64,000 bases of DNA from an uncultured Gammaproteobacteria bacterium (GTDB lineage: Bacteria; Patescibacteriota; Patescibacteriia; Patescibacteriales; UBA12465), in the NCBI GenBank assembly GCA_964509735.1, contig CAZDYJ010000002.1, positions 481-64,480 of the forward strand, in the 5' to 3' direction. Position numbers and translations under genes: made by a program. The notes under the pieces are model-generated. The model had not been told where the DNA came from. It saw nothing but the letters and a program-made list of their open reading frames with translations, and searched no databases. Shown one piece after another: positions 6,102 to 41,808 of the stretch; position 1 is the first letter of the stretch, and each line of letters starts with the position of its first letter.

Positions 6102-8189
6102 TTAATTATCAAAAGAAACTTCCTCACCTTCAGACAGCTTTTTTTCTCCTGCTCCAGAAGAAGAATTGCTAAACTGATTATTGCTTTGGTTATCTTTAGG
6201 GTTATTAAAAGTTTTTGTATTACTCGGACGCCCCTTAAAATCAACCGGTGATAAATTTTTTAAATCTGACAGAGATATCCAAGGACCTTCATCATTTTTT
6301 TCCAAACTAGCATCATTTCCGCCAAGATATTCTTTTTCTTTAATAATCGTGTTTAATTCCTGTTGTTTCTGAGTTTTTCTTTGCTCTTGTTCTAAACGTT
6401 TTTCCTCTCTTTTTTTACTTAAACAATCTTTGCAGAAAACCGGCCTAATACCATCTGGCACAAAAACAGTTCGCGTTATTTGTCCGCAAGAAGAGCACTG
6501 TGTTTCGTGTCCAGATTTTTCTTCAGAAAAAGATGGGGTTTTTATTTTAGGAGCCGGACTTTCTTGTCTTATCTGACTTTCTTGTCTTACCTGTCTTTTT
6601 TGTCTTAGCGGGTTTTCTTGTCTTACCTGTCTTTCTTGACCTCCTTGACTTTCTTTTTCTGTCCGATTTACTTGGTTTACTTGGCTTCCTTGGCTTATCT
6701 GGTTATCTGCGGAAAAACTATTTACAGGTTTCTGGTTATATTCTTCTTTAGAAAAATTATTAGGCTGCCTTTCTTGATATTCTTCTTTTTTGGTAAAAGA
6801 ATTTACTTTATTATAAGGAGCTGTCGGCCTAAAACCCTCTTGTTTATAATTTTTAGTAGAAACATTATTAGCAATAAAAGTTGTTTCTCTTTGTGTTAGA
6901 ACTTCATCATCGTCTGCATTTTCATGCCATTTCATAATTCTTTCTTCAACTGAATTTTTTTCACTAGCATACTGCTCTCTAGAATAATCAACTACCTGAC
7001 TAACATTATCAGTTTTTTCGTCTTCACGTAAAGGTGCCAAACCTTTAGCGGAAAATGGAGCAGAAGAAATACCGTCAATCATTAACTTTAAATACATTTC
7101 GTACTTAGGTAAATTAACAATATCTTCTTCGGTAAAAGTCGGAGTAAATTCTTTAACTAATTCCTCTGCGTCAGCAGCCCCAACGCGAAACACAACCATA
7201 GTGCCAACGTTACCAAAAACAGCTGGCTTAACTTTTTCGCTAAGCTGCTCTATGTATTGATGAGCTAGAATTAAATTTAATCGGTACTTTCTGGCTTCTG
7301 ATAAAATATTAGCAAAGGAGTCGGTCGAGAAATTTTGAAACTCATCGATATATAAATAAAAATCTTTTCTATCTTTTTCTAAAATATCAACTCGACTCAT
7401 AGCCGCTAACTGAATTTTAGTAATCATCATCGCTCCTAACAATGCCGAATTATCCTCACCAATTCTACCCTTAGAAAGATTCATGATTAAAATTTTACCA
7501 CTATCCATTACTTCGCGAAGGTCAATCGAAGATTTAACTTGACCAATAATATTACGCATTAAGGAACTTGATAAAAATTGTCCTACCTTATTTTGAATCG
7601 GTGAAACAGCCTCAGAAGCAAATTTATCAGCATAACCAGCAAACTCTTTCTCCCAAAAAGCTTTAACAACTGGGTCTTTAATATTAGCTACCACTCTTTT
7701 GCGATAATTTTTATCAGACAACATTCTAACCACGCCTAAAATAGTTGATCCGGGAAAATCAAGAATAGCTAAAATAGCATTACGTAAAATATATTCCAAA
7801 CGAGGCCCCCAAGAATCAGCCCAAAGTTTTTGAAAAACCCCAATTAAACCAGAAGCGACTAAATGTCTTAAATGTGGTTCAACTTGTTCAACAATATTAA
7901 AAGCAATCGGATAGTCCATATCCGAAGGATTAAAATAAATAACATCTTTTATTCTCTCGGTAGGAACGTATTCAATAATTTTCTCAGCTAAGTCGCCATG
8001 AGGGTCAACAACGGCCACGCCATAACCAGCTCTAATATCGTTTACAATCATGTTTTCTAAAACCGTGGACTTACCCATACCGGTTTTTCCAATCAGATAC
8101 ATATGACGACGTCTATCGTCGGTTTTTATGCCGAAACGACGAGCTTCATTACGAAAAGTTGTTTGTGCAAAGACAGCAATCTCTCCCAT
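6102..8189 (-). CDS. P-loop NTPase of the TraD/VirD4/HerA-FtsK (AAA_10-like) superfamily, with a long low-complexity C-terminal tail containing a CxxC...CxxC zinc ribbon
   Basis: Walker A LIGKTGMGKST followed by VVDPHGDL. Walker B-like YLYIDEFQNF. The C-terminal ~260 aa are Q/E/K/S/N-rich with RQVRQE-type repeats. Zinc ribbon CSSCGQITRTVFVPDGIRPVFCKDC. Confidence 0.45.
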   Translation of the reverse strand: MGEIAVFAQTTFRNEARRFGIKTDDRRRHMYLIGKTGMGKSTVLENMIVNDIRAGYGVAVVDPHGDLAEKIIEYVPTERIKDVIYFNPSDMDYPIAFNIVEQVEPHLRHLVASGLIGVFQKLWADSWGPRLEYILRNAILAILDFPGSTILGVVRMLSDKNYRKRVVANIKDPVVKAFWEKEFAGYADKFASEAVSPIQNKVGQFLSSSLMRNIIGQVKSSIDLREVMDSGKILIMNLSKGRIGEDNSALLGAMMITKIQLAAMSRVDILEKDRKDFYLYIDEFQNFSTDSFANILSEARKYRLNLILAHQYIEQLSEKVKPAVFGNVGTMVVFRVGAADAEELVKEFTPTFTEEDIVNLPKYEMYLKLMIDGISSAPFSAKGLAPLREDEKTDNVSQVVDYSREQYASEKNSVEERIMKWHENADDDEVLTQRETTFIANNVSTKNYKQEGFRPTAPYNKVNSFTKKEEYQERQPNNFSKEEYNQKPVNSFSADNQISQGSQVNQVNRTEKESQGGQERQVRQENPLRQKRQVRQESQIRQESPAPKIKTPSFSEEKSGHETQCSSCGQITRTVFVPDGIRPVFCKDCLSKKREEKRLEQEQRKTQKQQELNTIIKEKEYLGGNDASLEKNDEGPWISLSDLKNLSPVDFKGRPSNTKTFNNPKDNQSNNQFSNSSSGAGEKKLSEGEEVSFDN
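6560..6700. repeat. In-frame tandem nucleotide repeats (unit ~ttcttgtcttacctgtct) inside the ATPase tail
   Basis: Repeated cttgtcttatctgactttcttgtcttacctgtcttttttgtcttagc...ttcttgtcttacctgtctttcttgacc, encoding QERQVRQENPLRQKRQVRQESQIRQE. Confidence 0.5.
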
Positions 8190-23613: not shown

Positions 23614-23642
23614 TTTAGTCACAGGACCTCACATAACAAAAA

Positions 23643-23672
23643 AAACATCGCTATTTAAACGATGTTTTTTTA
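23643..23672 (+). terminator. Rho-independent terminator after clpP (palindromic; may also terminate the converging minus-strand surface-protein array)
   Basis: aacatcg-ctatttaaa-cgatgtt hairpin followed by a T7 run. Confidence 0.55.
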
Positions 23673-23688: not shown

Positions 23689-24696
23689 TTATTTTTTAAA
23701 AGTAAAAGAATTTAACATTAAATTGAATATATTTTTATAAGCAAGTCTTTCGGAATTAATTGGTATATAAGATAGAGCATAAATATTTTCCCGACTTTCT
23801 TCTGTAATATAGAAATTTAAACCATCGGCACTTTTTATCGCCTCAAAATCACTTTTTACAATCAAACGATCAAGGCTGACGCTCTCATCTTTAAACATGT
23901 TTTCGTACCAAGAAACGATTCCTGATTTATTGTCATTTTTCATAACCGAAACCTGAAAATAAGATGAATCTGCCGCTTCTAAAACAAAGGTATTATCATT
24001 TAACTGATTAGTTAACCAGGCCACAGGATATAAAAAATTGAAAGAATAGGCCTGATTACGATAAAAAACAAGATTTGAATTGTCTTCTATTCTACCGACT
24101 CCGGCTGGATTATAAGAATTTAAAATTTCCTGCAAATCATTATACCCATCCCCATCGCTATCTTGATTATCTTTGGATGTGCCAAGAATAATCTCCTCTT
24201 CGTCGTATAAACCGTCTCCATCACTATCTAAAAGAGGTGCGTCGTCTACCTCGTCTACCTCGGGCCCACTTACCTCAACTGCTTCAATTAAAACAGTGTC
24301 ATTGTTGTCATTTAAATCAAGAACTGGAGCAGGTTCGGTAGATGAGGCTTGTAATTCCGCTTCCGATTTTTTTATTTCATTTTCAGGTTTTATTTCAATC
24401 TTATTTTTATTGGCTACTGGAGAAATAGTGTATATATAAGCAAAATAAACAATAGCCGCTATAACAATAAAACCAAAGAACATAATTAAAACTCCCACTA
24501 TTTTAAATTTCTTTTTTTCCGCAACATGGCTCTGCAAGCTAACTTTTCCAGCTGCTAAAGGATTAGAAACTGTGCCTAATATTTTTTCTTGATTAGGCAT
24601 ATTATGAACTATCAAATCACGTTCAATTTGATCAGAAATATCTTTCTCATTTATTTTTTCCTCTTTTTCTGTTTTTTTGTTCTTGGAAGAAAACAT
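23689..24696 (-). CDS. Single-pass membrane protein with extracellular thrombospondin-type-3-like Asp-rich calcium-binding repeats
   Basis: TM helix VGVLIMFFGFIVIAAIVYFAYIY. DSDGDGLYDEEEI...DSDGDGYNDLQEI (DxDxDGxxDxxE). Ends with the SYNPAGVGR motif shared with the 251-aa paralog. Confidence 0.5.
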   Translation of the reverse strand: MFSSKNKKTEKEEKINEKDISDQIERDLIVHNMPNQEKILGTVSNPLAAGKVSLQSHVAEKKKFKIVGVLIMFFGFIVIAAIVYFAYIYTISPVANKNKIEIKPENEIKKSEAELQASSTEPAPVLDLNDNNDTVLIEAVEVSGPEVDEVDDAPLLDSDGDGLYDEEEIILGTSKDNQDSDGDGYNDLQEILNSYNPAGVGRIEDNSNLVFYRNQAYSFNFLYPVAWLTNQLNDNTFVLEAADSSYFQVSVMKNDNKSGIVSWYENMFKDESVSLDRLIVKSDFEAIKSADGLNFYITEESRENIYALSYIPINSERLAYKNIFNLMLNSFTFKK

Positions 24697-24705
24697 ATTT
24701 TTACT

Positions 24706-24897
24706 TTAAATAAAAAATAAAACGGCTATAATAATTAAAACAAAAATTAAAAATCCTAAAACCAGCCATTTTTGAAAATGGCCGGTTTCTGTTTTTGGCA
24801 TAGTATGTAAATCTAAAGACAGTTTTGCCGTTTCTTTTTTTTCAAAAAGATTTATACGGTGACGTGAGCTCTCTTTTTGTCCATCCTTTTCAGTCAT
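24706..24897 (-). CDS. Small membrane protein (63 aa), hypothetical
   Basis: C-terminal TM WLVLGFLIFVLIIIAVLFFI; sits between the two TSP3-repeat paralogs in the same orientation. Confidence 0.3.
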   Translation of the reverse strand: MTEKDGQKESSRHRINLFEKKETAKLSLDLHTMPKTETGHFQKWLVLGFLIFVLIIIAVLFFI

Positions 24898-24919: not shown

Positions 24920-25675
24920 TTAGATTTCTAAACGACCTTCGCCGACAGGATTATAACCGTTTTTAACTTCCTCCCCGTCACTATATCCATCGCCGTCGGT
25001 ATCAGTAATAAGAGGATCGCTTTTATAAATCATCACTTCTTCATAATCACTTAAGCCGTCTCCATCAGTGTCTACTTTTAAAGGATCGGTTTTATAAGTC
25101 ATTATTTCTTCATAGTCTGTTAAGCCGTCTCCGTCTGAGTCTGAATTATAAGGATCTGTGCCGTATCTATAAATTTCATCATAATCCGATAAACCATCTT
25201 TATCTGAGTCTAATTGACTTAAGTCAACGCTTGGCACCTCCTCTTTTTCTTCTTCCTTTTCCTCTACCGTTGGCGTAACAAAAGAATCATCTTTTTCCTC
25301 AACAACAGGCACGTTTTGATTGTTTTCTGGAATTTGATTAATTATAGGTTCATTATTTTCTGGTTTTGGAGCAAGAAATTTACTATAAGCTAAATAAGCA
25401 CCTAAAATCAAAATAGCACCAACGACAGCAAAAATAGCAATTTTTAACCATTTTCCGCCACCTCTGCCTTCTTCCGGTTCTTCGTAAATAACTTTTTGTC
25501 CTGCTTGCAGAGAATTTGTTTCTAAACTTGAATTAGAAGGGTTAGAAGTTAAGCCAACTCTTCTTGTTTCAATTTGTGAAGATTGTTGTCCTCCAGTCGC
25601 ATTATCAGTGTCGGCAAAAATATCGTCGACTTTAGCGTTTTGAGGATTTTGTGCTCCAGTTAAATCATTAAACAT
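24920..25675 (-). CDS. Single-pass membrane protein with three tandem thrombospondin-type-3-like calcium-binding repeats (paralog of 23689-24696)
   Basis: [21 protein letters not shown]. Three ~22-aa repeats [11 protein letters not shown][IV]M.YK[TS]DPL, encoded by ~66-nt tandem DNA repeats at about 24960-25210. Ends with GYNPVGEGR. Confidence 0.5.
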
Positions 25676-25766: not shown

Positions 25767-26057
25767 TTATTTTCTTGCTTCCATTAAATTCTCAGCTACT
25801 GGATCCAAAACTATTTCCGAATCGTTGTTTATTATTTTATAAATCAAATTACCATCTGAATCGCGAAAAGCTTGAGCTTTAATTTCTTGATCTAAACCAA
25901 GCTCATTTTTTTGTTCAGCGCTTAAAAACTCCACCTTAAAATCATTTTTTTCTTGAGTCTCGATGTCTTTATTGCGATTAAAGAATAACAAAAAAACCAA
26001 TAAAGCAATTAATAAAGCGACCAAGCTGCCGAGAATGATTATTTTTTTTCTATCCAT
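25767..26057 (-). CDS. Small N-terminally anchored protein (96 aa), hypothetical
   Basis: TM IIILGSLVALLIALLVFLLFF followed by a short soluble domain; in the same operon-like array. Confidence 0.3.
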   Translation of the reverse strand: MDRKKIIILGSLVALLIALLVFLLFFNRNKDIETQEKNDFKVEFLSAEQKNELGLDQEIKAQAFRDSDGNLIYKIINNDSEIVLDPVAENLMEARK

Positions 26058-26126: not shown

Positions 26127-29100
26127 TTATTCCAAACGCTGCATAAGATCTTCGCCACCACCACCTCCACTGTTTCCCTCAATCTCTTTAACAACAGAAC
26201 CCCCACCTCCGCCGCCGCCACTACTAGAAGGACTGCTGCTTACAACACACACACCATTATAATTCATTGTTCCGTTTATAACTTTGCTGCCAATAGTTTT
26301 ACAAGAATCTCCAAAATATCTAACTATAAAATCAGTTCCCACACATTCATATCTATAACGATCACACCAATTAGTTGTTAGCCAGTTGTCTGTGCAATTA
26401 CCAGGAATTCTTGATGATCTTAAATCATCTTTGTCTCGACAACTATCCCCTGTGGCCACACCAATTCTTTTTAAATCTTTAAACCCAATTGGGCATTTTA
26501 TTTGATTTGTTTTGTGAGTATTATCACTTGATGTATATTTCGTGTTGTCTACGCAAATAGGATTATCTATTTGAATAAATGTACAGTTAGCTAAAGGGTT
26601 TGTTGGGTTAGAAAAAGAATCTGATAAACATATTTTTTTAGGATAGGTGTTGTTTATTTGACTACTTGTAAACCGATAGCTTTTTGTAGATACACCCTTG
26701 TAATACTCGTATGTTACTCCGGCTAAAGTTGCATCTCCTTCAAGAAATTGTATGTCTTTAACAATTTCCTCAACTACCCAACTTTTCTTTTCACATTTAT
26801 TGCTAGTGCATTTATAACCTAAGTCGCATTGTCCATCGGCTGTGCAATAACTTGGGTCAGCCTTACAGTCTCTGATAGCAAAATCACAAATAAAGCCTAT
26901 ATCACAGTCTCTGTCAGAAAAACAGGCTGTGTCATCTCCTTCGCCAGCATTAATACCACAGTCAACAGGACAAGTAGCTCTTCTTTCTTTAGCTGTCTGA
27001 CAAAAACCATCTCCACAAAAACCGCCACCATCAAGAGGATATTTAAAGACACAATAATTTCCAGAGGATATTTCAAATGGAGTCTTATCCCCTACGTTTG
27101 TATTACAAGCATACTGACGGTTAATAGAGCTGTTGTCTAAAGCATGGGCCGCCACACCATCTAATCCGTCACAATCTTCATAGCCATCATTATATAAACC
27201 CCCGCGTCCTTCAGAGTTAGGCGCCTGCTTAATGCCATCACCACAATAACTATTTATTCTCAAGCTAAATTCTTTCTGTGACTTTGCTCCAAAAGGAGAG
27301 GTAGCTGACACCTTAACATTAAAATATGATCCAGCCTGATTGCCAGGAAAAGATTTTGGATATCCGCTTATATAAAAACTATTTTGAGAAAGTTCAGCAC
27401 TGCCTAAATCTAAGCTAAAATCAGAGCTCGGCAAACCTTCTAAACGATAAGTAGTTTTTTGATCTAAATAAGAATCTGGGCCGACCAAACAATTATAAAA
27501 ATACTTATAACTACCCGACGAATTAATTCTCGCTGATAAAGGACAGGAAAAATTTAAAGGTGGTTTAGGTGATAAAAAATCCACATAAAATACTTTATTA
27601 AACCATTTATTATTTCTGTCTCTAACTCTTATATCAAAGCCAATTCTAACATCGTTAGAGAACTCTCCATTAGGATAATTTGCGGGATTAATAGTTCCGG
27701 TATAACTAACTTTATAGCGATTATTACCGGATGGAACTGGTTTTCCATCCCCTTCTCTTACAAAAAATGATCCAACTTCTGGTCCGGAAATTTTTTGTAC
27801 TACATAGTCGGAAGCACTGGGATTAGGGGATAAATTTTCTCCTGAAAAATAAAAACTATAATAAAAAGGAGTTCCTTCTTTAAGGGTGTGAATAGAATTT
27901 TCTGCTTCAATAAAAACGCCAGGCTCCTCTATTTTAATACTAAATGTTTCTTCAATGGCGCCACCGCGACCATCACTGACAATTAAATTAAAGTTATAGT
28001 TATTATTTGAGGGAGTTATTGGAGTTGAGGCGGCATAAACTTTTTTTTCAAATTTATTACTAGTATCAATTAAAACTGGTGCAGCACTCCAGCCAAGCCA
28101 TTTAGAAGCATCACCAGTTGATATTTCCCATTCTAAAGGATCGTTGTTTTCATCAAAAACCCTAATATAGCCATTTAAAGCTCTCCCAGCTTGAGCACTT
28201 AAATAATAGTCGACTACAATAGGGGAAATATTAGCACCGCTTCCACCTCCGGTTGTAAAATTAGTTAAACAAGCCGAACCACTATAATCACCGGGATTAA
28301 ATTCATATCCAAAATCATAACTTTCTAAAGAGGAGCATAAATTGTAACTCGAACCCTCTGAATTAGAAGCATAAACCATAACATAGCTGTTATCTGGTAA
28401 TGGCAAAGATTGTGGACCTGGATCATTTACAAAGCGTCGACTAATTTCATCCCAGCAAGTAATTTTATCAAAACCTGGGCAATAACCAAGTCTATTTATA
28501 GGATCAACATAATTTGGAGAAACGGCCAATTCACTTAAAAAATTCTGAGACCAACTAGGCCAGACAGACACGCTTTTGTTTGCCAAATAAGTTCCAGCTG
28601 TTAAACGAGGATAGTAACCAGTTTTCTGGCGATAATTAGCTAAAGCTTCTTTCATTTCCTCTAAACGTCCGATTCTTTTAGTATCTCTTATAATCATTGC
28701 TTTATGACTGTCACAAAAAAATCCACTCGGACAATCACTGTCAATTAGACAATTTTTTTTATTTAATAAAACACATGATCCCGTGCTGTTTCCTGAGGTT
28801 GAACAAATTTGATCATTAGAACAATCACTATCGTTTTGACAAGAAAAAGATGACACAGAGCAGGAATAAGAAGCATCCGAAAACTCTCCTTTACTTAAAT
28901 TATCATTAAACTTCCAACGAGAAATTATTTGTCCTAAAATATCAACTGTTTTTTCTGATGGCTCCTGGCTATAAGAAATAACATATATATTTGTAAACAC
29001 ATCTTTGCTGTCACTGACATTAGCAGCATTTACATAAACAGTTCGTCCATCTCTTATCGCTTCATAGCCATCAACCGTTAGAGCTTGTGGTGATCCAGCA

Positions 29101-29300
29101 AAGCCCTGACTTCTGTACCAAGAGGCGATGCTGTAATGATTGGGATTAGGAACAACTCGAACCGCAATAGCATCAGCTGAATCAGAAAAAGGATTTGAGT
29201 TTTCTTGAGCCTCGGCTGGATAAAAAACCAAAGCGGCTAAAAAAACAAAAGCAGATACTAAAATAAAACGACGAATGTTCATATTTTTTTCATTTTTCAT
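26127..29300 (-). CDS. Giant secreted Cys-rich protein (1057 aa) with Ig-like domains and a C-terminal poly-Gly tail
   Basis: Signal peptide MKNEKNMNIRRFILVSAFVFLAALVFYPAEA. Numerous Cys clusters (CSVSSFSCQNDSDCSNDQICS...; CGDGFCQTAKERRATCPVDCG). Cadherin/Ig-like segment LNGYIRVFDENNDPLEWEISTGD. C-terminus SSGGGGGGGSVVKEIEGNSGGGGGEDLMQRLE. Confidence 0.55.
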   Translation of the reverse strand: MKNEKNMNIRRFILVSAFVFLAALVFYPAEAQENSNPFSDSADAIAVRVVPNPNHYSIASWYRSQGFAGSPQALTVDGYEAIRDGRTVYVNAANVSDSKDVFTNIYVISYSQEPSEKTVDILGQIISRWKFNDNLSKGEFSDASYSCSVSSFSCQNDSDCSNDQICSTSGNSTGSCVLLNKKNCLIDSDCPSGFFCDSHKAMIIRDTKRIGRLEEMKEALANYRQKTGYYPRLTAGTYLANKSVSVWPSWSQNFLSELAVSPNYVDPINRLGYCPGFDKITCWDEISRRFVNDPGPQSLPLPDNSYVMVYASNSEGSSYNLCSSLESYDFGYEFNPGDYSGSACLTNFTTGGGSGANISPIVVDYYLSAQAGRALNGYIRVFDENNDPLEWEISTGDASKWLGWSAAPVLIDTSNKFEKKVYAASTPITPSNNNYNFNLIVSDGRGGAIEETFSIKIEEPGVFIEAENSIHTLKEGTPFYYSFYFSGENLSPNPSASDYVVQKISGPEVGSFFVREGDGKPVPSGNNRYKVSYTGTINPANYPNGEFSNDVRIGFDIRVRDRNNKWFNKVFYVDFLSPKPPLNFSCPLSARINSSGSYKYFYNCLVGPDSYLDQKTTYRLEGLPSSDFSLDLGSAELSQNSFYISGYPKSFPGNQAGSYFNVKVSATSPFGAKSQKEFSLRINSYCGDGIKQAPNSEGRGGLYNDGYEDCDGLDGVAAHALDNSSINRQYACNTNVGDKTPFEISSGNYCVFKYPLDGGGFCGDGFCQTAKERRATCPVDCGINAGEGDDTACFSDRDCDIGFICDFAIRDCKADPSYCTADGQCDLGYKCTSNKCEKKSWVVEEIVKDIQFLEGDATLAGVTYEYYKGVSTKSYRFTSSQINNTYPKKICLSDSFSNPTNPLANCTFIQIDNPICVDNTKYTSSDNTHKTNQIKCPIGFKDLKRIGVATGDSCRDKDDLRSSRIPGNCTDNWLTTNWCDRYRYECVGTDFIVRYFGDSCKTIGSKVINGTMNYNGVCVVSSSPSSSGGGGGGGSVVKEIEGNSGGGGGEDLMQRLE

Positions 29301-29328: not shown

Positions 29329-32300
29329 TTAATCTCCTAAGGGAATAAAAAGCAATTCTTCTGACTTAGAACTTTCATTACCAGAACCATCAATTGCTGA
29401 TATGGCTATATAATTACCAGAAAAAGAAAACTCAGAAGCAGAAAATACAAGATTATTTAAAGCTTCACCACTTTTTTTAACTGGAGAGTCAAAAGATTTT
29501 CCATAAAGACCCGGTCTTAATCCGATGTAAATTCGGTAAAAAGAAGTGTCGTCATTATTTTCTTGCCAGCTAATACGAACTGAGTTTTCTCCAACAGGAT
29601 TAGCCTCTAAATTTTGTGGAACACTTGGAGCTGTTTTGTCAGTAGGCATGGCTATTTTTTCGTTAGCAGCTGGACTTTCGGCTTTGTTAACTGAAACAAC
29701 GCCAATTCTAAAAGCATAATTAAAGCCATTATCTAAACCAGATACAATAGCCGAACAGCTATAGATATTATTATTTAAACTACATATATCAGTATTGTTG
29801 GCCTTAATTTCTCTAAAAGATATTTCACTTTTGCCCGCACGAATATAATATATTTTGTAAGCATCAACTTGATCAGCATTTGACTCCCAAGAAATTTTCA
29901 CCTGACCACTGGTTTTTAAATCCAAGGCTTCAATTATCCTTCCTGAAGATGGTAATTTTTCTCTAAAGAAATATGATTCTTTTAAAACATTCCAAATACA
30001 TATTCCATCAGGCACACCATCACCATTTCTATCATCTCCACAACGATCATTTACATTATTGCAAGAAGCGGGGCGATCAGAGCTGCAAATCAAGTTATTA
30101 TTCCTACCAATAATCACCGGTTCATTTAAAACAGCTGGTAAATCATCGTATGTTCCGCTGGTTCCAGCATCGCGACAATAATAAAAGCTATAATTAAAAT
30201 TACCGCAATCACTTTCTCCAATTGTACAATTATTTACACTATCGTACCAAGGAGACCATAGGCCATCACGACTAATCGCTGGCCAAGGATTGTTACATAT
30301 AAATACAAAAATGTCAGCGTTTTTATTAAAGTTATTGCCAGCCGAATAGTAATTACAACAATTTTCTTCACAAATATCATTAGAACAAGAACAGGTCGCG
30401 TCGCTATTACAAGTTGACCCTGGAGTGTTAGCGATAAAACGAGACATATCTATAGAAGCGTTTATTTTTGTTTTACCATCAGTTATACCTTTTTGAGCTG
30501 AAACAAAATATTGATTTAAAGGTAAGCCGTTTAATCTTTCTCCTTTGGCGATTGTTTCATCAGCAATAGTAAACTTATAATCCCAAAAATAGCCACCAAC
30601 TGGACGCAAGGATTGTCCGTCACTGCTTAAAGCAAAGGCGCTCCAGACTTTATCCTTATCAGCTTTTGAATCAAAACTACCTGAACCAGGAATATCTTTT
30701 TCTTCAGACTCCAAGGCGTTGTCAGTAGTTTTAAATAAATAGGAAATAGGCTTAACATCGATATTCGAAATAGCACATATGCCAGACATGGCACTTTGAG
30801 AAGAAAGGGTTGAAAATTTAATTATTTCAGAATTTTTAAAACTCTTTTCATTAAATTTAATATTCTCAGCTTCTAAAAATCCGCTTGGGATAGAAGCATC
30901 GGGATAACCACGACCATTAAAACCAACTCCTTTAAGACTTAGTATACCTGTTTGACTATTTAAATTTTCATCACCTAAAACTAATAAATAGTAATTAGTA
31001 GATGGTGATAAAATAGTATTTGATAAAAAATTAACAGTACTGGCTTCGGCCGTATTTTCTAAAAATGCTTTACCAGGAATCATACAATAAAGTTTGTCCT
31101 CACTTGGTTTTTCAGCTAATGCCCTATTACTTAGAGATGGTGAGAATAAAGAGGCAATTTTTCTAACTGAAACTCTAAAGAAATTTTCTATTCTGGCAAA
31201 GAAATTATTATTATAAGCTATAGCGTCTTTTAAAGACTCAGCTGAAGCTACAAAAGAGCCGTTTGGACAAATCCCATCCCCAAAAGATCTTTCCTCAATT
31301 AGAACAATATTATTGTCTAAGGACGATTGATCCATTAACTGATTAAAGCTAAATTTTAAAATAGCATTACGACAAACATTATCTGATAAATGGGCTGGAA
31401 AACTCGAAACGATTGTTGGTCTTGTTTCACAACAAGTATCATTACCACAACCAACTAGTTCTGGTGAGCCACATTGCTCATCGGTTTCACAACCACAACA
31501 TAAACCTCTTTCTGCTCCAGCACAATTTCCGCGATCAGCGATACAAGATAAATTCGGATTAATATTTTGACATGAATCAAAAGCTCCCGGAGTAGTTACC
31601 GGCTGACAACAACAAGTTCCACAATCACCTGAAGTAGCTGAGCCAAGAACCCCTCCCTCTGCCATACAAGAAAATCCTGGAGCACTACACAAAGAAGTGT
31701 CACAAACATAGGGGTCTTTAATGCCAAAATAACCACTTACAGAACAAGATAATCCAACGCCACTTATAGGATTAGCACAGGCTGATTCACATTCCTTAAT
31801 ACCTTTATAGTTTCCTGTTTTTAGTTTAGTTTCAGAAGCACAAAGCTTTTCTTCTTCCTTACAATCATAATAAGCACAGTAACCTTGGTTTTCTGGATTG
31901 CCATCATTTATAACTTCTCCTAAGGTACACTTTGACTCCTTGGCATCAAAGCAGCAACGACCACTGGCTTCAGCTGAACAAGCGTCAAACCCTTCTAAGG
32001 CTGAGCATGGATCACTTAAAGCACATTCGGTTTCACATTTTTCTAAACTTAAATAACTACCTGTTTTAACAGGATAACTAGAAGCACAAACATTTGATTC
32101 AGTAGCGGAACAATTATAATAAGCGCAATAACCAAAGTCCTCACTTAAAGGATTATCGCTTATTAAATTGCCTTTTCCACCTCGACAAATCCCTGAGGCA
32201 GAGTCTAAACAACAAACATTAGCATGTTCAAGACAAGCCTCTGGGCTCAAACTAGCACAATCAGTACAATATCCATTTGGAAAACTAGAATCATTAACTT

Positions 32301-35196
32301 CACAAAATTGACCACTGGTTCCTGAACAATTACAAGCAGCATCTCTTTCAAGGGCAGTATCTCCAGCAGCCGCACAACCACTACAACGACCTAAACCACT
32401 ATCATCGTTTGTAGTATCACTACCACAAGTTCCTCCGCATTGTAATTGAACAACTTCGCCGTCTTTGTTTTGAAAAGAGCAGCAATCCCGAGCACTCTGC
32501 CCAACGGTACAACAACAATCACAGCTAGCGCTTTTTGTGGAAACACAACGGCCTACCGAAGAATCACTCTCAGACTCACAAATGGACCCACTAGGACATA
32601 ATTTATTTGAAATACAGCGACCAAAACCATTTATATTTTCACATTTCAAACCGTAGTCGCAGCTAGAACAAGTTGAAGTTGGATTATAGCATTTATCTCC
32701 CACACCTCTTATAAATCCTTCTGGGCAAGATGATGTTAAATTTATTTCCAAACGTCCATTTTCATTACAATATAATTTAGTAGATAAAGCCTGTCCATTT
32801 AACTCATATTCGAAAGATTGATCTAAATCACAATTTTGCTCTTGTTCGTTTTCTAAGTTTTGTAAACATTTATCAAGGTTTGTGTTATAAGTACAATTAT
32901 TTTCTCCAATTCTACAACCAGCTACACTTGAACAATCATAACTACAATTGACACCAAATATTTTATCTCCACCAGCATAAGGAGAACATATACCAGAAGC
33001 ATTTGGACAGGCACCAACATTACAAAATCCGTAATATTTAGATAATCCGGCACAGCTATCTGCTTCTGTCTCTGGATTAGAAAAAGCGGTACTAAAACTC
33101 CATTCATAAACAGAGCTCGGTACGTCAACATAACATTTATCAAGTGTATTAACACACATTCCTTTTTTAAAAGTGCCAGCCGGACAACAAACCTGAGACC
33201 CACAATCAGAATTAGAAATACAAGCCCCAACTGAGAAATTTAAATCATTACCATAAACACCGTTTTTAAATATTCTAACAGGACCAGTAATTGAATTTTC
33301 CGGCACAGAAGTTTCCACCTTATCAGCCCGACCATCTTTCTTAACTATAGCTGACACATTATCAGAACCATTGAATTTAATTGAGACCTCGCTAGAAGGG
33401 GCACCAAAATATTCACCCCAAATAGCAACCTTAGTTAAGGTTGGTCCGCGAATAGGATCTATTTTACACAAACTTGTTTTTAAATCTATATTTTGATCAA
33501 AAGTAAAGGCTTTGGGATTTAAATTATCAGTGCTAACAGTTTTATCTCCTAATTCAATTTTTATAACATAGTCGGAAGGATTTAAATCTTTAGGAACTTT
33601 AACCATTATCTGATTATCTTTCCAAACAGAATTTAAACAAACTTCTGGAAAATCATAAGAAGCTTCAATGTCTCCAAAAAAAACTTTTCTATTACCCTTT
33701 GCTCCTCCAAAACCAGATCCATAAATAGTTACGTATTGACCAGTGTTTCCAGAGCTTGGAGAAAACGAAGAAATAAAAGCCCCTTCATTAGGTTCTTTTT
33801 CTTTTACAAATGTTAAAAAATTACTTTTCTCCAAACTACCATTTAAGGTTGCCTGGACAAAACTTCCTGACTCACCAGCTCGAATATTTGGAGTAGCTGA
33901 CAAACCTTGTAAGCCTTTGGGGTCACTAAAATCAGAAACAAGGCCTCTAACATTAGTTTGATAATTTCCAAAATAAGCCTCGCCTGAGAAAAGATTAACA
34001 CCGGAATAAGAAACCTCCGAACTTAACTGTCCTCTTATTGGATCAATTTCGCATAAACCAGGACGAACAATACTATTGGAACGAAAATCTGGAATAATTG
34101 GGCCATAGTCATTATTGGTTGTGTCAAAAAGAGAATCGGCGGCAACAACTTTTATAGGACCAGTCGCTGCGCCAGCTGGAATAGCGATAATTATCTGATC
34201 ACTTCTCCAGAAACTAATACAGTCTGGATTTATAATGTTTGGCCTATCAGCTTCTTTTTCAGTGCCACTTCCTAAAAAAATAACCTTACTCTTATCAGCA
34301 TCATAAGATCCAAAATTTCGTCCAGTAATAGTTAGAAAATTTCCCGTCGCTCCATTGGGAGCACTTAAGTTGCAAGTATCACTACAATCTGCGTCCGTTT
34401 TACAACTTTTATTCTGTTCATTCTGACAAAAACCGCCCGCTGGACTAATATCAATTATAACGGGAGACCCTATACAGGTACAAGAATCGGGACTACAAGT
34501 TAAATAGGCGCCACATAAAGCATCATCAGCCTGACAAGTAGAGCCGCTTGAAGATCTATTACAAGAATCACCAGCCTGACCCAAGGGGCGACATAAACAG
34601 CTGTTGTCACAGTAATTTCCCTCGCCACAAATTTGATCAGTAGCTTGGCAACCAGGCAAAGCACTACCATCACAACTAACAGGGCCACAACCAGCTCCAT
34701 AACAACCACTACAATCAGAGCCTATACAAGCGCCAAAAGATCCATTGTTCCAAACCATGTATCCTCCACAACCACAAGCTTGAGTATCTCCGCTATTGTA
34801 TCCCCAATTATCACCGCTTATTACGCCGCTAATTCTATTAATTAAAAAGCTGGCAATTCCCCAAGAGGCTAAAATTATAACTAAGCCAATAACTCCAGCA
34901 ACTAGTATTTTTTTAGCTTCGGAAACTTTTTCTTCATTTCCGCCTGAGGTCATCCATTTAAAACCGCCATAAAGAATTATGCCCACCGCTAATATACCTA
35001 AAAACCCTAAGGCAAAATTTATTATTCTTCCCGCCGTTTCCCTTGGGTCGCTATTTGTTTCGCCAAGTGATCCGTCTAAACCACTGGCCACCTGGTCAAT
35101 CCCGTAGTCTTGAGCAAAGGCTATGCGAAAAAATAAAATACCTCCCAATAAAAGCAGGAAAGAAGTTATCTTAAAAAATTTTTTTCTGTTTATCAT
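29329..35196 (-). CDS. Giant surface protein (1955 aa): TrbC/VirB2-pilin-like N-terminal double-TM module + IPT/TIG-like domains + extensive Cys-rich region + C-terminal fibronectin-III-like domains
   Basis: N-terminal signal (…AFAQD) then two hydrophobic helices separated by KWMTSGGNEEK (IINFALGFLGILAVGIILYGGF / VAGVIGLVIILASWGIASFLINRI). Three IPT/TIG-like segments (LTITGRNFGS; VTIYGSGFGG; VAIWGEYFGA). Over 150 Cys in patterned clusters. C-terminal FN3-like SVPQNLEANPVGENSVRISWQENNDDTSFYRIYIG. Confidence 0.6.
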   Translation of the reverse strand: MINRKKFFKITSFLLLLGGILFFRIAFAQDYGIDQVASGLDGSLGETNSDPRETAGRIINFALGFLGILAVGIILYGGFKWMTSGGNEEKVSEAKKILVAGVIGLVIILASWGIASFLINRISGVISGDNWGYNSGDTQACGCGGYMVWNNGSFGACIGSDCSGCYGAGCGPVSCDGSALPGCQATDQICGEGNYCDNSCLCRPLGQAGDSCNRSSSGSTCQADDALCGAYLTCSPDSCTCIGSPVIIDISPAGGFCQNEQNKSCKTDADCSDTCNLSAPNGATGNFLTITGRNFGSYDADKSKVIFLGSGTEKEADRPNIINPDCISFWRSDQIIIAIPAGAATGPIKVVAADSLFDTTNNDYGPIIPDFRSNSIVRPGLCEIDPIRGQLSSEVSYSGVNLFSGEAYFGNYQTNVRGLVSDFSDPKGLQGLSATPNIRAGESGSFVQATLNGSLEKSNFLTFVKEKEPNEGAFISSFSPSSGNTGQYVTIYGSGFGGAKGNRKVFFGDIEASYDFPEVCLNSVWKDNQIMVKVPKDLNPSDYVIKIELGDKTVSTDNLNPKAFTFDQNIDLKTSLCKIDPIRGPTLTKVAIWGEYFGAPSSEVSIKFNGSDNVSAIVKKDGRADKVETSVPENSITGPVRIFKNGVYGNDLNFSVGACISNSDCGSQVCCPAGTFKKGMCVNTLDKCYVDVPSSVYEWSFSTAFSNPETEADSCAGLSKYYGFCNVGACPNASGICSPYAGGDKIFGVNCSYDCSSVAGCRIGENNCTYNTNLDKCLQNLENEQEQNCDLDQSFEYELNGQALSTKLYCNENGRLEINLTSSCPEGFIRGVGDKCYNPTSTCSSCDYGLKCENINGFGRCISNKLCPSGSICESESDSSVGRCVSTKSASCDCCCTVGQSARDCCSFQNKDGEVVQLQCGGTCGSDTTNDDSGLGRCSGCAAAGDTALERDAACNCSGTSGQFCEVNDSSFPNGYCTDCASLSPEACLEHANVCCLDSASGICRGGKGNLISDNPLSEDFGYCAYYNCSATESNVCASSYPVKTGSYLSLEKCETECALSDPCSALEGFDACSAEASGRCCFDAKESKCTLGEVINDGNPENQGYCAYYDCKEEEKLCASETKLKTGNYKGIKECESACANPISGVGLSCSVSGYFGIKDPYVCDTSLCSAPGFSCMAEGGVLGSATSGDCGTCCCQPVTTPGAFDSCQNINPNLSCIADRGNCAGAERGLCCGCETDEQCGSPELVGCGNDTCCETRPTIVSSFPAHLSDNVCRNAILKFSFNQLMDQSSLDNNIVLIEERSFGDGICPNGSFVASAESLKDAIAYNNNFFARIENFFRVSVRKIASLFSPSLSNRALAEKPSEDKLYCMIPGKAFLENTAEASTVNFLSNTILSPSTNYYLLVLGDENLNSQTGILSLKGVGFNGRGYPDASIPSGFLEAENIKFNEKSFKNSEIIKFSTLSSQSAMSGICAISNIDVKPISYLFKTTDNALESEEKDIPGSGSFDSKADKDKVWSAFALSSDGQSLRPVGGYFWDYKFTIADETIAKGERLNGLPLNQYFVSAQKGITDGKTKINASIDMSRFIANTPGSTCNSDATCSCSNDICEENCCNYYSAGNNFNKNADIFVFICNNPWPAISRDGLWSPWYDSVNNCTIGESDCGNFNYSFYYCRDAGTSGTYDDLPAVLNEPVIIGRNNNLICSSDRPASCNNVNDRCGDDRNGDGVPDGICIWNVLKESYFFREKLPSSGRIIEALDLKTSGQVKISWESNADQVDAYKIYYIRAGKSEISFREIKANNTDICSLNNNIYSCSAIVSGLDNGFNYAFRIGVVSVNKAESPAANEKIAMPTDKTAPSVPQNLEANPVGENSVRISWQENNDDTSFYRIYIGLRPGLYGKSFDSPVKKSGEALNNLVFSASEFSFSGNYIAISAIDGSGNESSKSEELLFIPLGD

Positions 35197-35235: not shown

Positions 35236-37938
35236 TTATAAACGACAATTACCCGATGAGTCTAATTCTGTTGTCGATTCTCCAAAACAACAAGAGCCGT
35301 CAACTTCAGAACAGCCAGGACCGATGCTTGGTTTGAAACAATTTTGATAAATATCTCTAACCCCGGAGCCTACTTGAGCATAAAAAGTCATTGATTCAGG
35401 AAGTGGAGTATGTCCAATAGTTGCAATTGTCATATCTGGTTCTCCGTCAAAAGGTTCAATATCTTTATTTTCGCTATTTATCCAATAACCAAAAGCGGCC
35501 GGAGCAGAACTTCTTAAGTTAATAAATTTATGATTATAAACATTACTACCCGCCCTTATATCGGTACTGCCGCTAATTAATGTGCTGTTTAGCATTAAAG
35601 TATTAAAATAAACATCAATTGGACTAGCTGGCTCTACCTCACTTGAGCCTTGTCCTGGTCCAATGTATGTTATTCTTGGTGGGTCTAAATTTATTTTATC
35701 GCTAACAAAAAATGACCATGAATAATTATCACCGTTTTCTATTGAAGGGTTATTTTCATTATAAAAACTAAGTGGACCTTGGGAACTGGTATTTCTATTT
35801 CCATCAAGAGAATTAGTTGCGGCGTCTATTATACCATCAAGATTAGCTATATTAGCTGACGGATAATTTTTTCCCTCTAAATTTTGACAAACATTATAAC
35901 CTAAAGGTACTGACGAGCATGAATTAAAGGGACTTAAAGCTGCACAGTCATTATTATTTGAGCAAGTTTTTAAATTTGCTGCCTGTAGCTCAACTTTTAA
36001 ATTACTGTTAGCCGGCAAACAATAAATTTTATCCCCACAAGCATTAACTCCACATTCCTCGTTAGATAAAAATTCTACAGTGCGATAACGATTAGAAACC
36101 ATGAAACGACCATTTACATAATCTCCCACGCAAATAGAATTATCACACTTAAAAGATTTACAATCGGAATTAGCGGAACATGATGATCCAGAAGGCAAGG
36201 AATCACTTCTAAAATTAACAACTCTTATAAAATTAGAGACTTCGTCAGCACTACCAGAAACGGTTAAAGGATTAATTGGTTCGTTAAAATTTATTTGAAT
36301 CGCAGAATTTCGAGGACGATCTGGTTTGTCTTTTACTTCACTTAAGTCTATTTTATTAAGCCCACCAGTAAATGGTTTTATGGATAAAGAGCTTGGATTA
36401 CTAGCACTTAAAACAATACTATTACCAGAAATTCCTGCCACTCTTGATTTTAATTTTATTAATGAGCCGTTAGAATTTTCCAATTCAATATCAGGATGAC
36501 CACTTAAAACTGCCTTGATATTAAAAGCTTGGCTTTCTAGGTTTGAAGGAGAAAGAGAATTACAGTTTTCCAAAACAGCAATATTATTATTCCCTGAAAC
36601 AGAAGAAAAAGTATAAACCATTGAGTTAACTCTTAAGGTATCGGCTAAACGCTCTGGTTTAATTTTTATTTCCCAAATATTTCCTGATTCACGAGTTTCA
36701 GTTTTAAATTTTAATTTATAATCGGCAAAGAACACTTCATTATTAGAATTGAAATCAGCAATTCCTAAGAGACTATTATTTAAACCATTAAATAGCTGAG
36801 CCTTGTTGGTATTGTCAGATGGAATAGATATTTTAAAAATGCTTATTTGCCCCGTATAATTATCAAAAGAAACTTCTGGGCCAGAAGGACTAATTGATAA
36901 AACTTCTGCTTTAGAATAAATTTCTGGGCAAGCATTTACTTTTATCTCAGCAATAGCTGAAACGGGAGAAACTGATTCTCCATAAAGATCTTTCTCGTTG
37001 TCCTGTCTAGGAACTATTTTATCTTGCAAAACAATTGGTGGTTCAAGATCTAAAACATTGCTAATTGTAAAAGTTACTTCTAAATAATTACTACTACAAG
37101 AACTAAACATTGAAACGCCGCCAGTTTTTTTTATTCTGTCAGTAAACCGAACGGAATAAGGGGTGTGCCCCGTGCTTGAACCCAAATAACTAAGTGGTGA
37201 TAGTACTAAAGTTTTTTTATCATTAGGAACAGAAACAAGCACATCACTGACATTAGAATTAACTGCTGGGCAAGAGCCGCCAGCACAAGCATCACCTAAA
37301 TCATTTTTAAATATTCTAATATTTTCTGGGTTTAACTTATTACAAGTATTGTTATCACAAGCACATGACAAACCAGCATCACTTATACAAACAGAGCTTA
37401 AATCAATTTCCTCTTTAAAAGTTATCATTATTGAAGTGTTTCGAGGAACGTCTTTTTGTCCGTCTTCAGGATAAATACTTTCAACCGAACAAGCTCCTAA
37501 GGCGCCAATCCCAGGATTATAAAAACCACTTGGAGTACTTTGCCATTGACTTGTTCCACCAGCGCCAGTTAAAGTATCTCTTACTCGATTGATGATAAAA
37601 GTTGTTATCCCCCAAGAAGCTAAAATAATTATTAAACCAATAACAGCATTTTTTAATATTTTCTTAGCTACTGATATTTTTTCTTCATTACCCCCTGAAG
37701 TCATCCATAAAAATCCAGCATAGATAACCAAAAGAACAGCTATAACGCCTAGGAAGCTTAGGGCTAATTGAATAAAGCGTCCAGCTACAACTCTTATGTC
37801 ATCAGTTGCAACTAGCGATCCATCGAGTCCCGACTCAACTTCAGTTAAACCAAAGTCTTGAGCAAAAGCAAAATTAACCAAGAAAAACAAGGTTAAAAAA
37901 CTAAAAGCCAAGACAAAGAATCTTATTTTTTTATTCAT
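35236..37938 (-). CDS. Giant surface protein (900 aa) sharing the same pilin-like N-terminal double-TM module, followed by Ig-like and Cys-rich domains
   Basis: The first ~125 aa are ~65% identical to the 1955-aa protein (MTSGGNEEK loop, two TM helices, AFAQDFGL signal-peptidase site). Bacterial Ig-like segments (SIYPEDGQKDVPRNTSIMITF; ITYIGPGQGSSEVEPASPIDVYF). Cys-rich C-terminal region. Confidence 0.6.
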   Translation of the reverse strand: MNKKIRFFVLAFSFLTLFFLVNFAFAQDFGLTEVESGLDGSLVATDDIRVVAGRFIQLALSFLGVIAVLLVIYAGFLWMTSGGNEEKISVAKKILKNAVIGLIIILASWGITTFIINRVRDTLTGAGGTSQWQSTPSGFYNPGIGALGACSVESIYPEDGQKDVPRNTSIMITFKEEIDLSSVCISDAGLSCACDNNTCNKLNPENIRIFKNDLGDACAGGSCPAVNSNVSDVLVSVPNDKKTLVLSPLSYLGSSTGHTPYSVRFTDRIKKTGGVSMFSSCSSNYLEVTFTISNVLDLEPPIVLQDKIVPRQDNEKDLYGESVSPVSAIAEIKVNACPEIYSKAEVLSISPSGPEVSFDNYTGQISIFKISIPSDNTNKAQLFNGLNNSLLGIADFNSNNEVFFADYKLKFKTETRESGNIWEIKIKPERLADTLRVNSMVYTFSSVSGNNNIAVLENCNSLSPSNLESQAFNIKAVLSGHPDIELENSNGSLIKLKSRVAGISGNSIVLSASNPSSLSIKPFTGGLNKIDLSEVKDKPDRPRNSAIQINFNEPINPLTVSGSADEVSNFIRVVNFRSDSLPSGSSCSANSDCKSFKCDNSICVGDYVNGRFMVSNRYRTVEFLSNEECGVNACGDKIYCLPANSNLKVELQAANLKTCSNNNDCAALSPFNSCSSVPLGYNVCQNLEGKNYPSANIANLDGIIDAATNSLDGNRNTSSQGPLSFYNENNPSIENGDNYSWSFFVSDKINLDPPRITYIGPGQGSSEVEPASPIDVYFNTLMLNSTLISGSTDIRAGSNVYNHKFINLRSSAPAAFGYWINSENKDIEPFDGEPDMTIATIGHTPLPESMTFYAQVGSGVRDIYQNCFKPSIGPGCSEVDGSCCFGESTTELDSSGNCRL

Positions 37939-39591: not shown

Positions 39592-39831
39592 CTATCTTCC
39601 AGCTCTCATAGTACCTTCAGGCAATTTACCAATTTTACGCAAAAATTCATTCTTCTTTTGAAGATCTAAGCCGATTAAAGCTTTTTTCTTCTGCGCTTGC
39701 TTGGTGGTTTTTGATTGAAGATGCTTTTTGGAGCGAGCTTTCTCGAGTCTCTTGCTATTTTTCAAACCACGTTTAAACTTACGCAAAAAACCTTCAAAAC
39801 TTTCTCCTGGTTTTCTTTTAAAATCCGCCAT
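39592..39831 (-). CDS. rpsU: 30S ribosomal protein S21 (bS21)-like
   Basis: Small basic protein with a FEGFLRKFKRGLKNSKRLEKARSKKHLQSKTTKQAQKKKAL pattern resembling bS21 (E.FE.ALRRFKR....G.L.E.R.R..Y.KPT..RK). Confidence 0.5.
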   Translation of the reverse strand: MADFKRKPGESFEGFLRKFKRGLKNSKRLEKARSKKHLQSKTTKQAQKKKALIGLDLQKKNEFLRKIGKLPEGTMRAGR

Positions 39832-41233: not shown

Positions 41234-41241
41234 ATTTTTTA

Positions 41242-41808
41242 TTATTCATAAATTGGCCAATAATTGTTATCAAAAAAAGTTACTCGAGACAAAGGCCAAC
41301 CTCGAAAAAGTACCTTTCCGGTTATAAAATTTTTATTTACAGAACCAAAGCTTCTTGAATCCTTAGACGCACCCCTATTATCCCCTAAAACAAAATATTC
41401 ATCCGGTCCAACTATTATTCTCTCAGTATTATCATTATAATTTCTTAAAGATTCATCTAAATAATCTTCAGATAAAATCATACCATCAGGATTTTCGCTG
41501 TTAAATATAGTAATTTTTCCATCTCTAATTTGCAATTCTTCTCCGGGAAGAGCAATAACTCTTTTAATAAAGTATTCTTGAGGATTTCTGGGATAACGGA
41601 AAACTATAACCTGACCTCTTACAGGAGGATTGAAGCGAAAAGACAATTCATCTATTATTAAATATTCATTATCATGAAAATTAGGCTCCATGGATGCCCC
41701 TTTTACATAAAAAGGTTGAATAAGGTAATAGCGAACCGGAATAATAATGGCTGCTGAAATAGCCGCCACCTTAACTATCTCCCAAACAAAAAGTAAAAAC
41801 TTTTTCAT
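41242..41808 (-). CDS. lepB: Signal peptidase I
   Basis: N-terminal TM. Catalytic Ser in GASMEPN. Box D/E VIALPGEEL and GDNRGASKDSRSFG. Confidence 0.8.
   Translation of the reverse strand: MKKFLLFVWEIVKVAAISAAIIIPVRYYLIQPFYVKGASMEPNFHDNEYLIIDELSFRFNPPVRGQVIVFRYPRNPQEYFIKRVIALPGEELQIRDGKITIFNSENPDGMILSEDYLDESLRNYNDNTERIIVGPDEYFVLGDNRGASKDSRSFGSVNKNFITGKVLFRGWPLSRVTFFDNNYWPIYE

Follow-up and report, generated by a model that had tools for sequence, protein, structure and literature searches.

The window analysed here is a stretch of 64,000 nucleotides (positions 481 to 64,480 of contig CAZDYJ010000002.1, GenBank assembly GCA_964509735.1) from an uncultured bacterium that GTDB places in the Patescibacteriota. 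Our subject is a pair of neighbouring open reading frames (ORFs), ORF A and ORF B, which encode large proteins sharing a short N-terminal module of the kind seen in type IV secretion system (T4SS) pilins. The window is chromosomal, with a GC content of about 0.33 and nearly all genes on one strand. ORF A and ORF B run in the same direction with 39 nt between them, and are composed as follows (aa, amino acids; TM, transmembrane helix; AF2, AlphaFold2).

29329..35196, minus strand: ORF A, 1955 aa; pilin module, linker, and Cys-rich ectodomain with TIG, Big_5, and fn3 domains (Pfam matches)
35113..35196, minus strand: ORF A aa 1-28, Sec-type signal peptide with a basic n-region, ending AFA before QD (reading and hydropathy)
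35029..35112, minus strand: ORF A aa 29-56, acidic, predicted extracellular N-segment with a conserved DPR motif
34960..35028, minus strand: ORF A aa 57-79, TM1, hydrophobic helix (hydropathy and AF2)
34906..34959, minus strand: ORF A aa 80-97, short basic loop KWMTSGGNEEKVSEAKKI, 18 aa, predicted to be cytoplasmic
34837..34905, minus strand: ORF A aa 98-120, TM2, hydrophobic helix (hydropathy and AF2)
34777..34836, minus strand: ORF A aa 121-140, Gly/Ser/Asn-rich linker, poorly conserved
35236..37938, minus strand: ORF B, 900 aa; pilin module, disordered linker, and beta-rich immunoglobulin (Ig)-like ectodomain
37564..37938, minus strand: ORF B aa 1-125, second copy of the pilin module (PF18895, 40.6 bits)

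Direct reading of ORF A gives MINRKKFFKITSFLLLLGGILFFRIAFA followed by QD and then by 28 mostly acidic residues, and by Kyte-Doolittle hydropathy the N-terminus of each protein has three hydrophobic segments and no more, which in A cover residues 7-29, 55-81, and 91-123. In the AF2 model of the A module, helices at residues 51-82 (predicted local distance difference test score, pLDDT, of 89-95) and 88-126 form a helical hairpin with a pLDDT of about 90. These results agree with the preliminary description of this DNA, which had recognized a signal peptide ending AFAQD, a polar stretch, and two hydrophobic helices around a short loop, and had placed both modules at the right coordinates while leaving the strand, which is minus for both genes, unstated. 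The counter-case named in that description, a protein with no pilin match by hidden Markov model (HMM) and a single stop-transfer helix, is not what is seen, given that a pilin match (below) and a second helix are both present. The loop between the helices is basic and 18 residues long in both modules, and reads (K/L)WMTSGGNEEK...AKKI. In A, the N-segment has six acidic residues and one basic residue, and the loop has four basic (K/R) and three acidic residues. Moreover, there is no Cys in the module, while the remainder of A contains 124 and the remainder of B contains 26. Because the N-segment is acidic, the loop is basic, and a Cys-free module adjoins a Cys-rich remainder, these data fit a topology in which the N-terminus is outside, the loop inside, and the C-terminus outside, the hairpin being followed by a disulfide-rich extracellular body. 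This predicted arrangement agrees with the earlier placement of the Cys-rich ectodomain outside the cell. We infer that the signal peptide is cleaved after AFA by signal peptidase I. An LPXTG sorting signal is absent from both C-termini (...EELLFIPLGD in A and ...DSSGNCRL in B), the first 60 residues hold no class III/N_methyl motif, and neither protein has an N_methyl Pfam match.

The AF2 model of ORF B has an overall pLDDT of 76.9, with a hairpin at residues 48-123, a linker at 122-140 for which pLDDT falls below 50, and a beta-sandwich run at pLDDT 84-94. Foldseek searches with this model return weak matches only, to Ig/cadherin/FN3 chains and bacterial adhesins (best E=4.6e-4). When A and B are compared by BLASTP, the N-terminal module alone is aligned (56% identity over 129 aa, E=7e-38; next best E=0.75), as expected from the earlier statement that the two proteins are otherwise unrelated. 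Within the mature module, which runs from AQ through TM2, 60 of 94 residues (63.8%) are identical, so that the initial figure of about 65% was fair. A module HMM finds no third copy among all of the ORFs in the window. In 14 A orthologues, residues D50, P51, and R52 of the N-segment and W81, T83, G86, E88, and A94 of the loop are invariant.

Both modules exceed the gathering score of 26.6 bits for PF18895 (T4SS_pilin), the A module scoring 48.0 bits (E=1.4e-12) and the B module 40.6 bits (E=2.6e-10); in the full-length proteins the scores are 42.6 and 37.2 bits, respectively. Matches to PF04956 (TrbC/VirB2) span positions 1-97 of the 98-position model and lie just under its gathering score of 27.9 bits, at 22.1 bits for A (E=1.8e-4) and 26.9 bits for B (E=5.6e-6). 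The original assignment to T4SS (VirB2-like) pilins thus holds by the first of these two families. Both modules are also near misses to NCBIfam NF045849 (Mbov_0395 family pilin-like conjugal transfer protein; 80-position model, curated cut-off 40 bits), with 38.6 bits for A (E=6e-10) and 36.1 bits for B (E=4e-9). Among 34 relatives of the module, all 34 match PF18895 and 29 match TrbC at E<=0.01; a profile built from these 34 modules finds no solved pilin among the PDB sequences. A search with the module alone yields 616 proteins, and the best 120 of these are all short PF18895 proteins with 53-71% identity and mostly 72-98% query coverage, comprising 119 single-module pilins (124-155 aa) and one tandem two-module protein (212 aa). 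Those of the best 120 with a named source come from Patescibacteria or Falkowbacteria. At the 53 positions that are at least 80% conserved in stand-alone pilins, the majority residue is kept at 43 in A and at 37 in B. In addition, when the fused modules are compared with the six-gene pilin array of a related genome, they are 48-63% identical to the product of the first gene and 25-52% identical to the others. On these profile scores and identities we assign the module to the VirB2-like pilin family of the Patescibacteria; its kinship with classical TrbC/VirB2 is remote, and by the Pfam rule it is not a member of that family. As a separate observation, the A module of the window (34837-35028, minus strand) keeps the stand-alone-type residues YGGFKWMTSGGNEEK, and most A orthologues have YAGFLWMTS.G.E at this point; its nearest sequences are stand-alone pilins (71-73%), other A modules reaching up to 70%, in a comparison for which the stand-alone set was itself chosen by similarity to this A module.

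The fusion is widespread. Drawing on NCBI, JGI, ENA, and Logan assemblies, a search with full-length A gives at least 120 clusters of 1638-2318 aa with 40-61% identity, most of which cover 96-100% of the query, and nearly all of those listed carry PF18895 and TIG. The corresponding search with B gives at least 120 clusters, mostly of 870-921 aa with 48-61% identity; among those listed, PF18895 and Big_5 are present in all but one, a 747-aa match on a 2.4-kb contig. NCBI names on some B orthologues include 'pilin', 'TrbC/VirB2 family protein', and 'Ig-like domain-containing protein'. A scan of GTDB species representatives places A orthologues in 75 loci, two of them on chromosome-scale records, and the named lineages are mostly Candidatus Falkowbacteria or 'Patescibacteria group'; other names on some of these loci (e.g. 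Gammaproteobacteria, Bacillota) are taken as mislabels. In about 63 loci from species-level genomes, an ORF and HMM scan finds the B-then-A tandem with a module at each N-terminus. Two distant contigs (L082 and L084) have pairs consisting of a B-like protein of 595-714 aa and an A-like protein of 3528-4410 aa, which are also located downstream of hisS. Because the full-length tandem occurs in the same order in about 63 species-level genomes, the fusion is, on this distribution, ancient and not the outcome of local or recent shuffling. The notion of domain shuffling onto a common anchor, as first put forward, is therefore upheld in that the module is shared, and set aside in so far as it implied a local or recent event. 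A few derived substitutions (e.g. GGFKW to YAGFLW) are common to the A and B modules, which suggests a single fusion in an ancestor, with a later duplication or a transfer of the module.

Conservation of individual segments, expressed as mean pairwise identity over 36 genomes, is highest in the hairpin. Values for TM1, loop, and TM2 are 63.6, 67.0, and 63.6% in A and 67.2, 67.9, and 65.8% in B, making the cytoplasmic loop the best-conserved segment of both proteins. The ectodomains of A and B reach 47-51%, the linkers 24-36% (35.8% in A), and the signal peptides 31-33% (31% in A), as cleaved signal peptides should. For comparison, the single-pass TM anchors of two proteins encoded nearby (E and G, below) are 41-47% identical, and the values for SecD and LepB are 61.6 and 68.2%, respectively. 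By these figures the constraint on the hairpin is far above the needs of an anchor. Given that residues of the stand-alone lead pilin are kept and that conservation is on a par with SecD and LepB, the hairpin would have to maintain a specific interaction. Calling the module a common anchor, as the preliminary description did, undersells an element that is the best-conserved part of A and B and that co-varies between them, unlike a generic anchor. A and B modules are 66.6% identical within a genome and 57.3% identical between genomes, and in 21 of 63 genomes the genome's own B is the closest to A of 64 B modules. With double-centred distances the within-genome excess is 9 percentage points (permutation p<5e-5), which holds when near-duplicate genomes are left out, and d(Ai,Bj) correlates with d(Ai,Aj) (r=0.76). 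Recent gene conversion between A and B was considered for this genome and rejected, because synonymous differences are scattered and there is no long identical tract of DNA. The co-variation points to a shared partner of the two hairpins or to direct contact between them.

Extension of the module is also common beyond A and B. An HMM search of 1.84 billion representatives gives 49,506 clusters at E<=1e-3, and the best 150 of these divide into 80 stand-alone pilins, 25 proteins that extend beyond an N-terminal module, 44 tandem poly-pilins, and one other. The 25 extensions are C-terminal and 196-4285 aa long, a Gly/Asn/Ser-rich linker is typical of the junction, and after TM2 many fused members have the semi-conserved sequence 'RLxxA(T/x)G'. 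Domains sampled in the extensions include TIG, Big_5, fn3, a ConA-like lectin domain (P0385), Fib_succ_major, and BNR repeats. Hence, the small size of stand-alone pilins (about 120-155 aa), from which A (1955 aa) and B (900 aa) depart, is not a family-wide rule as sampled, because 25 of the best 150 clusters combine an N-terminal module with an extension. In this sample, fusion to extra domains is a general habit of the VirB2-like pilin family, and the earlier portrayal of a pilin fusion as exceptional does not stand. The poly-pilins (e.g. P0241, P0264, P0295, and P0073) are single ORFs with 2-16 modules and up to 1775 aa, an arrangement in which successive hairpins are topologically compatible. 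In the metagenomic locus L083, Fib_succ_major is joined to a VirB2-like module (P0376, 2758 aa; 9774-18050) and also to two type IV pilin (N_methyl) N-termini (121-1248 and 4964-6127), the same cargo being carried by two unrelated types of pilin.

Our preferred reading, to which we give an even chance, is that A and B are modular VirB2-like pilins, linked to a T4SS, that display Cys-rich, adhesin-type ectodomains with Ig-like, TIG, and fn3 domains by way of a flexible linker of about 20 aa. In the mechanism that we propose, the Sec signal peptide would target each protein to the membrane and be cut off after AFA by signal peptidase I. The N-segment would then remain outside, TM1 and TM2 would form the hairpin with the WMTSGGNEEK loop in the cytoplasm, and TM2 would start the export of the ectodomain. 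The hairpin would be an active partner-binding element and not a passive anchor, its likeliest partners being the stand-alone pilins and the VirB4-type T4SS of the lineage. Falkowbacteria belong to the class ABY1, and three Falkowbacteria genomes are listed as VirB4-positive in Table S1 of PMC12102498. The adhesin might be displayed on a VirB2-like filament, or at its tip or base, and so bind the host cell, incorporation of A and B into a pilus being a presumed step. A further claim, that the fused proteins are true T4SS filament subunits whose hairpins are extracted and co-polymerised with stand-alone pilins, probably as the first-assembled tip with giant exchangeable adhesin heads, is offered tentatively and strikes us as somewhat doubtful. 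In F pili, the helices are stacked, with the loop between them facing the lumen and the very C-terminus of the pilin exposed at the surface (PMC10939261), a geometry in which C-terminal cargo would point outwards.

Several points weigh against a T4SS-linked role. The scores of both modules for TrbC and NF045849 are below the curated cut-offs, and no gene for VirB3, VirB4, VirB6, or a stand-alone pilin is present in the window or beside the cluster in more than 60 related loci, where the neighbours are housekeeping genes. A pilus made of the VirB2-like family has not been seen in any member of the Patescibacteria, the possibility having only been raised (PMC12857230). Moreover, 800-1800 aa of cargo on every subunit cannot pack in a filament, which leaves A and B a minor, tip, or base role only. 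The co-variation of A and B is equally explained by direct pairing of both hairpins in the membrane. Finally, co-variation with the genome's own stand-alone lead pilin is mixed in the four genomes that could be compared, the own pilin ranking 8, 0, 3, and 41 out of 124 for A and 76, 3, 0, and 41 for B.

The genes that follow A belong to a conserved cluster. The order relA (opposite strand), B-A-C-D-E-F-G, clpP (opposite strand) recurs almost everywhere that contigs reach, and the members downstream of A in the window are the following.

26127..29300, minus strand: ORF C, 1057 aa, secreted and Cys-rich, signal peptide by direct reading; same position in 63 loci; weak family matches only
25767..26057, minus strand: ORF D, 96 aa, N-terminal TM helix; in 57 loci
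24920..25675, minus strand: ORF E, 251-aa bitopic membrane protein with TSP3 calcium-binding repeats (PF18884, 89 bits); in 64 loci
24706..24897, minus strand: ORF F, 63 aa, C-terminal TM helix; in 47 loci
23689..24696, minus strand: ORF G, 335-aa bitopic protein with Ca-binding (thrombospondin type 3/EF-like) repeats and a weakly PsbP-like C-terminal domain; in 63 loci
23639..23671, minus strand: terminator-like hairpin, 14-bp stem and T-run, directly after the G stop codon

Typical sizes across the loci are about 1050 aa for C, 100 for D, 250 for E, 65 for F, and 340 for G. In the window, the intergenic gaps from B to G are 9-91 nt, and the terminator-like hairpin after G probably marks the end of a B-G operon; a promoter scan gives 57 sites against 50.8±6.8 in shuffled sequence and is no better than chance. 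The rest of this operon, which encodes a secreted Cys-rich protein and Ca-binding bitopic proteins, is probably part of the same surface assembly as A and B. TSP3 genes adjoin A-like genes in L082, L083, and L084 as well, and a gene for a protein of about 340 aa also follows in L082. We had also considered ORF G as a VirB8-like bitopic link to a T4SS and rejected the idea, because its PDB profile matches are instead weak ones to lanmodulin/EF-hand (lanmodulin E=4e-4) and PsbP (E=0.022).

It is possible, and in our judgement unlikely, that the B-G operon encodes an envelope structure of its own without any pilus, in which the A and B hairpins pair mutually or with D-G and the module acts as an oligomerising membrane foot that is independent of a T4SS. 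In favour of this, all seven genes are conserved together at a distance from T4SS genes, with short gaps of 9-91 nt and a single terminator, and partner genes for a TSP3-repeat protein and a protein of about 340 aa accompany A-like genes in other lineages too; co-variation between A and B is, in addition, the expected product of direct contact. Such a complex nevertheless leaves unexplained why 70-81% of the positions conserved in stand-alone pilins are retained, those of the cytoplasmic loop included, and why there is a specific likeness to the lead gene of the pilin array.

That the hairpin is a mere tether without specific partners, standing in for an anchor of the sortase or lipoprotein kind, seems improbable to us. 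The topology signals would suit a stable hairpin anchor, neither protein has a C-terminal LPXTG signal, and the cluster lies in a housekeeping neighbourhood. Hairpin and loop are, however, 64-68% identical, which is like SecD and LepB, whereas the true anchors of E and G are at 41-47%; neither the within-genome co-variation of the A and B modules nor the presence of the same specific paralogue type in both proteins is expected of a simple tether. We regard as very doubtful the idea that the fusion is a precursor, whose ectodomain is cut off after export to give a normal pilin and a free secreted protein. By way of analogy, RP4 TrbC undergoes C-terminal trimming. In its favour, the likeness to stand-alone pilins stops exactly where these end, with a poorly conserved linker next, and many fused members share the semi-conserved 'RLxxA(T/x)G' junction past TM2. 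However, neither a protease gene nor any recognisable motif for cleavage is conserved alongside the cluster, the linker is highly variable (24-36% identity), and several stand-alone pilins are already encoded in the same genomes, so that fused genes are unneeded as a source of pilin. Chance hydrophobic resemblance, or a small pilin gene joined to a downstream ORF by gene calling or assembly, has only the prior expectation that known TrbC/VirB2 pilins are 70-120 aa long in its favour, and is practically dismissed by the E-value of 1.4e-12 to the curated PF18895 model and by uninterrupted ORFs, found for A as for B in over 120 clusters from several assembly sources and in about 63 species-level genomes.

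Comparison with known systems places A and B closest to the stand-alone pilins of the Patescibacteria. VirB2-like pilins of this phylum include an essential pilin array in S. epibionticum (Wang 2023, PMC10633639), and arrays of 2-11 genes appear in a 2025 survey (Quinonero-Coronel 2025, PMC12102498). The stand-alone proteins have the same signal peptide, DPR motif, TM1, WMTxGGNEEK loop, and TM2, but end about 10 residues past TM2 (120-155 aa), whereas A and B run on for 1830 and 775 residues, respectively, and are encoded outside a pilin array or T4SS locus. Classical TrbC/VirB2/TraA proteins likewise have a leader that signal peptidase I (LepB) removes, a short basic loop flanked by two hydrophobic helices, and both termini outside; they differ in that the organism here is monoderm, no VirB3/VirB4 gene is adjacent, and the C-terminal cargo is huge. 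The Mbov_0395 proteins of Mycoplasma integrative and conjugative elements, to which the hairpin region is matched, give a second, independent link to monoderm conjugation systems, although these proteins are small, judged from the 80-position model, and A and B are giant. Extended VirB6 proteins are also core T4SS membrane components with large extra domains of unknown role (PMC12857230), but they are polytopic, with at least five helices, their added domains are central or C-proximal, and they have no homology to the module. Sortase-anchored adhesins of Gram-positive bacteria differ in having the C-terminal LPXTG signal that A and B do not.

Modular type IV pilins, such as PilB and PilC of S. 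sanguinis, resemble A and B in having an N-terminal pilin module, a short linker, and a bulky functional module, and the likeness is one of analogy only. They are widespread, they carry adhesive modules such as vWA and ConA-like lectin domains, and a location at the tip of the filament has been proposed for them (Raynaud 2021, PMC8179133). The ConA-like lectin is a cargo both of these pilins and of the VirB2-like module in P0385. Type IV pilins have an unrelated fold, with a single N-terminal helix, and belong to another machine, with a class III signal peptide and a prepilin peptidase, whereas A and B have a signal peptidase I-type site (AFA before Q), a two-helix hairpin, and no class III motif.

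What is already known, therefore, is that Patescibacteria have VirB2-like pilins and pilin arrays (PMC10633639, PMC12102498, PMC12857230), that the module belongs to a Pfam family, and that some B orthologues are automatically labelled 'pilin'. In open-access papers and preprints we came across no account of large ectodomains joined to VirB2-type pilin modules. The 2025 survey (PMC12102498) treats VirB2 as a small protein, makes no mention of fused forms in the passages searched, and reports that adhesins such as PrgB were not detected. In annotation, the labels 'pilin' for the 900-aa protein and 'IPT/TIG domain-containing protein' for proteins of about 1900 aa each leave out half of how the protein is built. 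A large part of bacterial diversity consists of Patescibacteria, which apparently live attached to host cells. Their unusual T4SS and its arrays of VirB2-like pilins proved essential in the single system in which this was tested, and the question addressed here is that of the host-contact structure, for which conserved, widespread proteins that join a pilin module to adhesin-type domains of up to about 4300 residues are concrete candidates. Fusion may be a route of adhesin display in these ultra-small bacteria. A T4SS-linked role for A and B predicts that their surface display depends on the T4SS. Were they indeed filament subunits, they would be the 'missing' host-attachment adhesins of these T4SSs, the first VirB2-type pilins to bear a cargo, and a second, independent invention of the modular-pilin strategy of type IV pili.

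Several other features of the window touch on these proteins or their surroundings. ORF C, which has weak Cys-rich repeat matches only in Pfam and NCBIfam, contains a stretch, ...LEEMKEALANYRQKTGYYP...VDPINRLGY..., that by eye resembles the head motif of GspG/type IV pilins, without the N-terminal hydrophobic helix. Housekeeping genes of the window include those for FtsA/FtsZ, SecDF, ClpP, RelA, HisRS, LepB, QueA, RuvB, GyrA, and NrdD. Of the VirB4, VirB6, and VirD4 homologs that the preliminary description had raised as possible assembly factors, VirB4 and VirB6 are not found in the window, and VirD4 has a soluble counterpart 27 kb away. This VirD4/TraD-like ATPase (6102..8189, minus strand, 695 aa), the sole T4SS-like gene of the window, has a TrwB_AAD_bind match of 44 bits and a C-terminal zinc finger (CxxC-x17-CxxC), and lacks a TM helix at the N-terminus; its neighbours are an RNase T-like gene and a 135-aa ORF without a family match, with no T4SS genes among them.

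Directly upstream of the A and B pair lie lepB and hisS (39818-41808, minus strand), as they do in L001 and L002, both from Falkowbacteria, and in the distant L084; in L082, hisS is upstream of the pair and the contig stops short of lepB. LepB is the processing enzyme of classical VirB2/TraA propilins, and the linkage of lepB and hisS to the pair may simply be conserved housekeeping synteny. A gene for a prepilin peptidase (A24) at 16763-17584 on the minus strand, between ftsA and a Wzy_C/TPR gene, implies that the organism also has type IV pilin processing. Finally, a 323-aa protein encoded at 45170-46141 on the minus strand has no Pfam match and scores 158 bits, below the cut-off of 212, for RaSEA (TIGR01210), the radical SAM enzyme of archaeosine biosynthesis; its gene is located two genes from queA in this bacterial genome.

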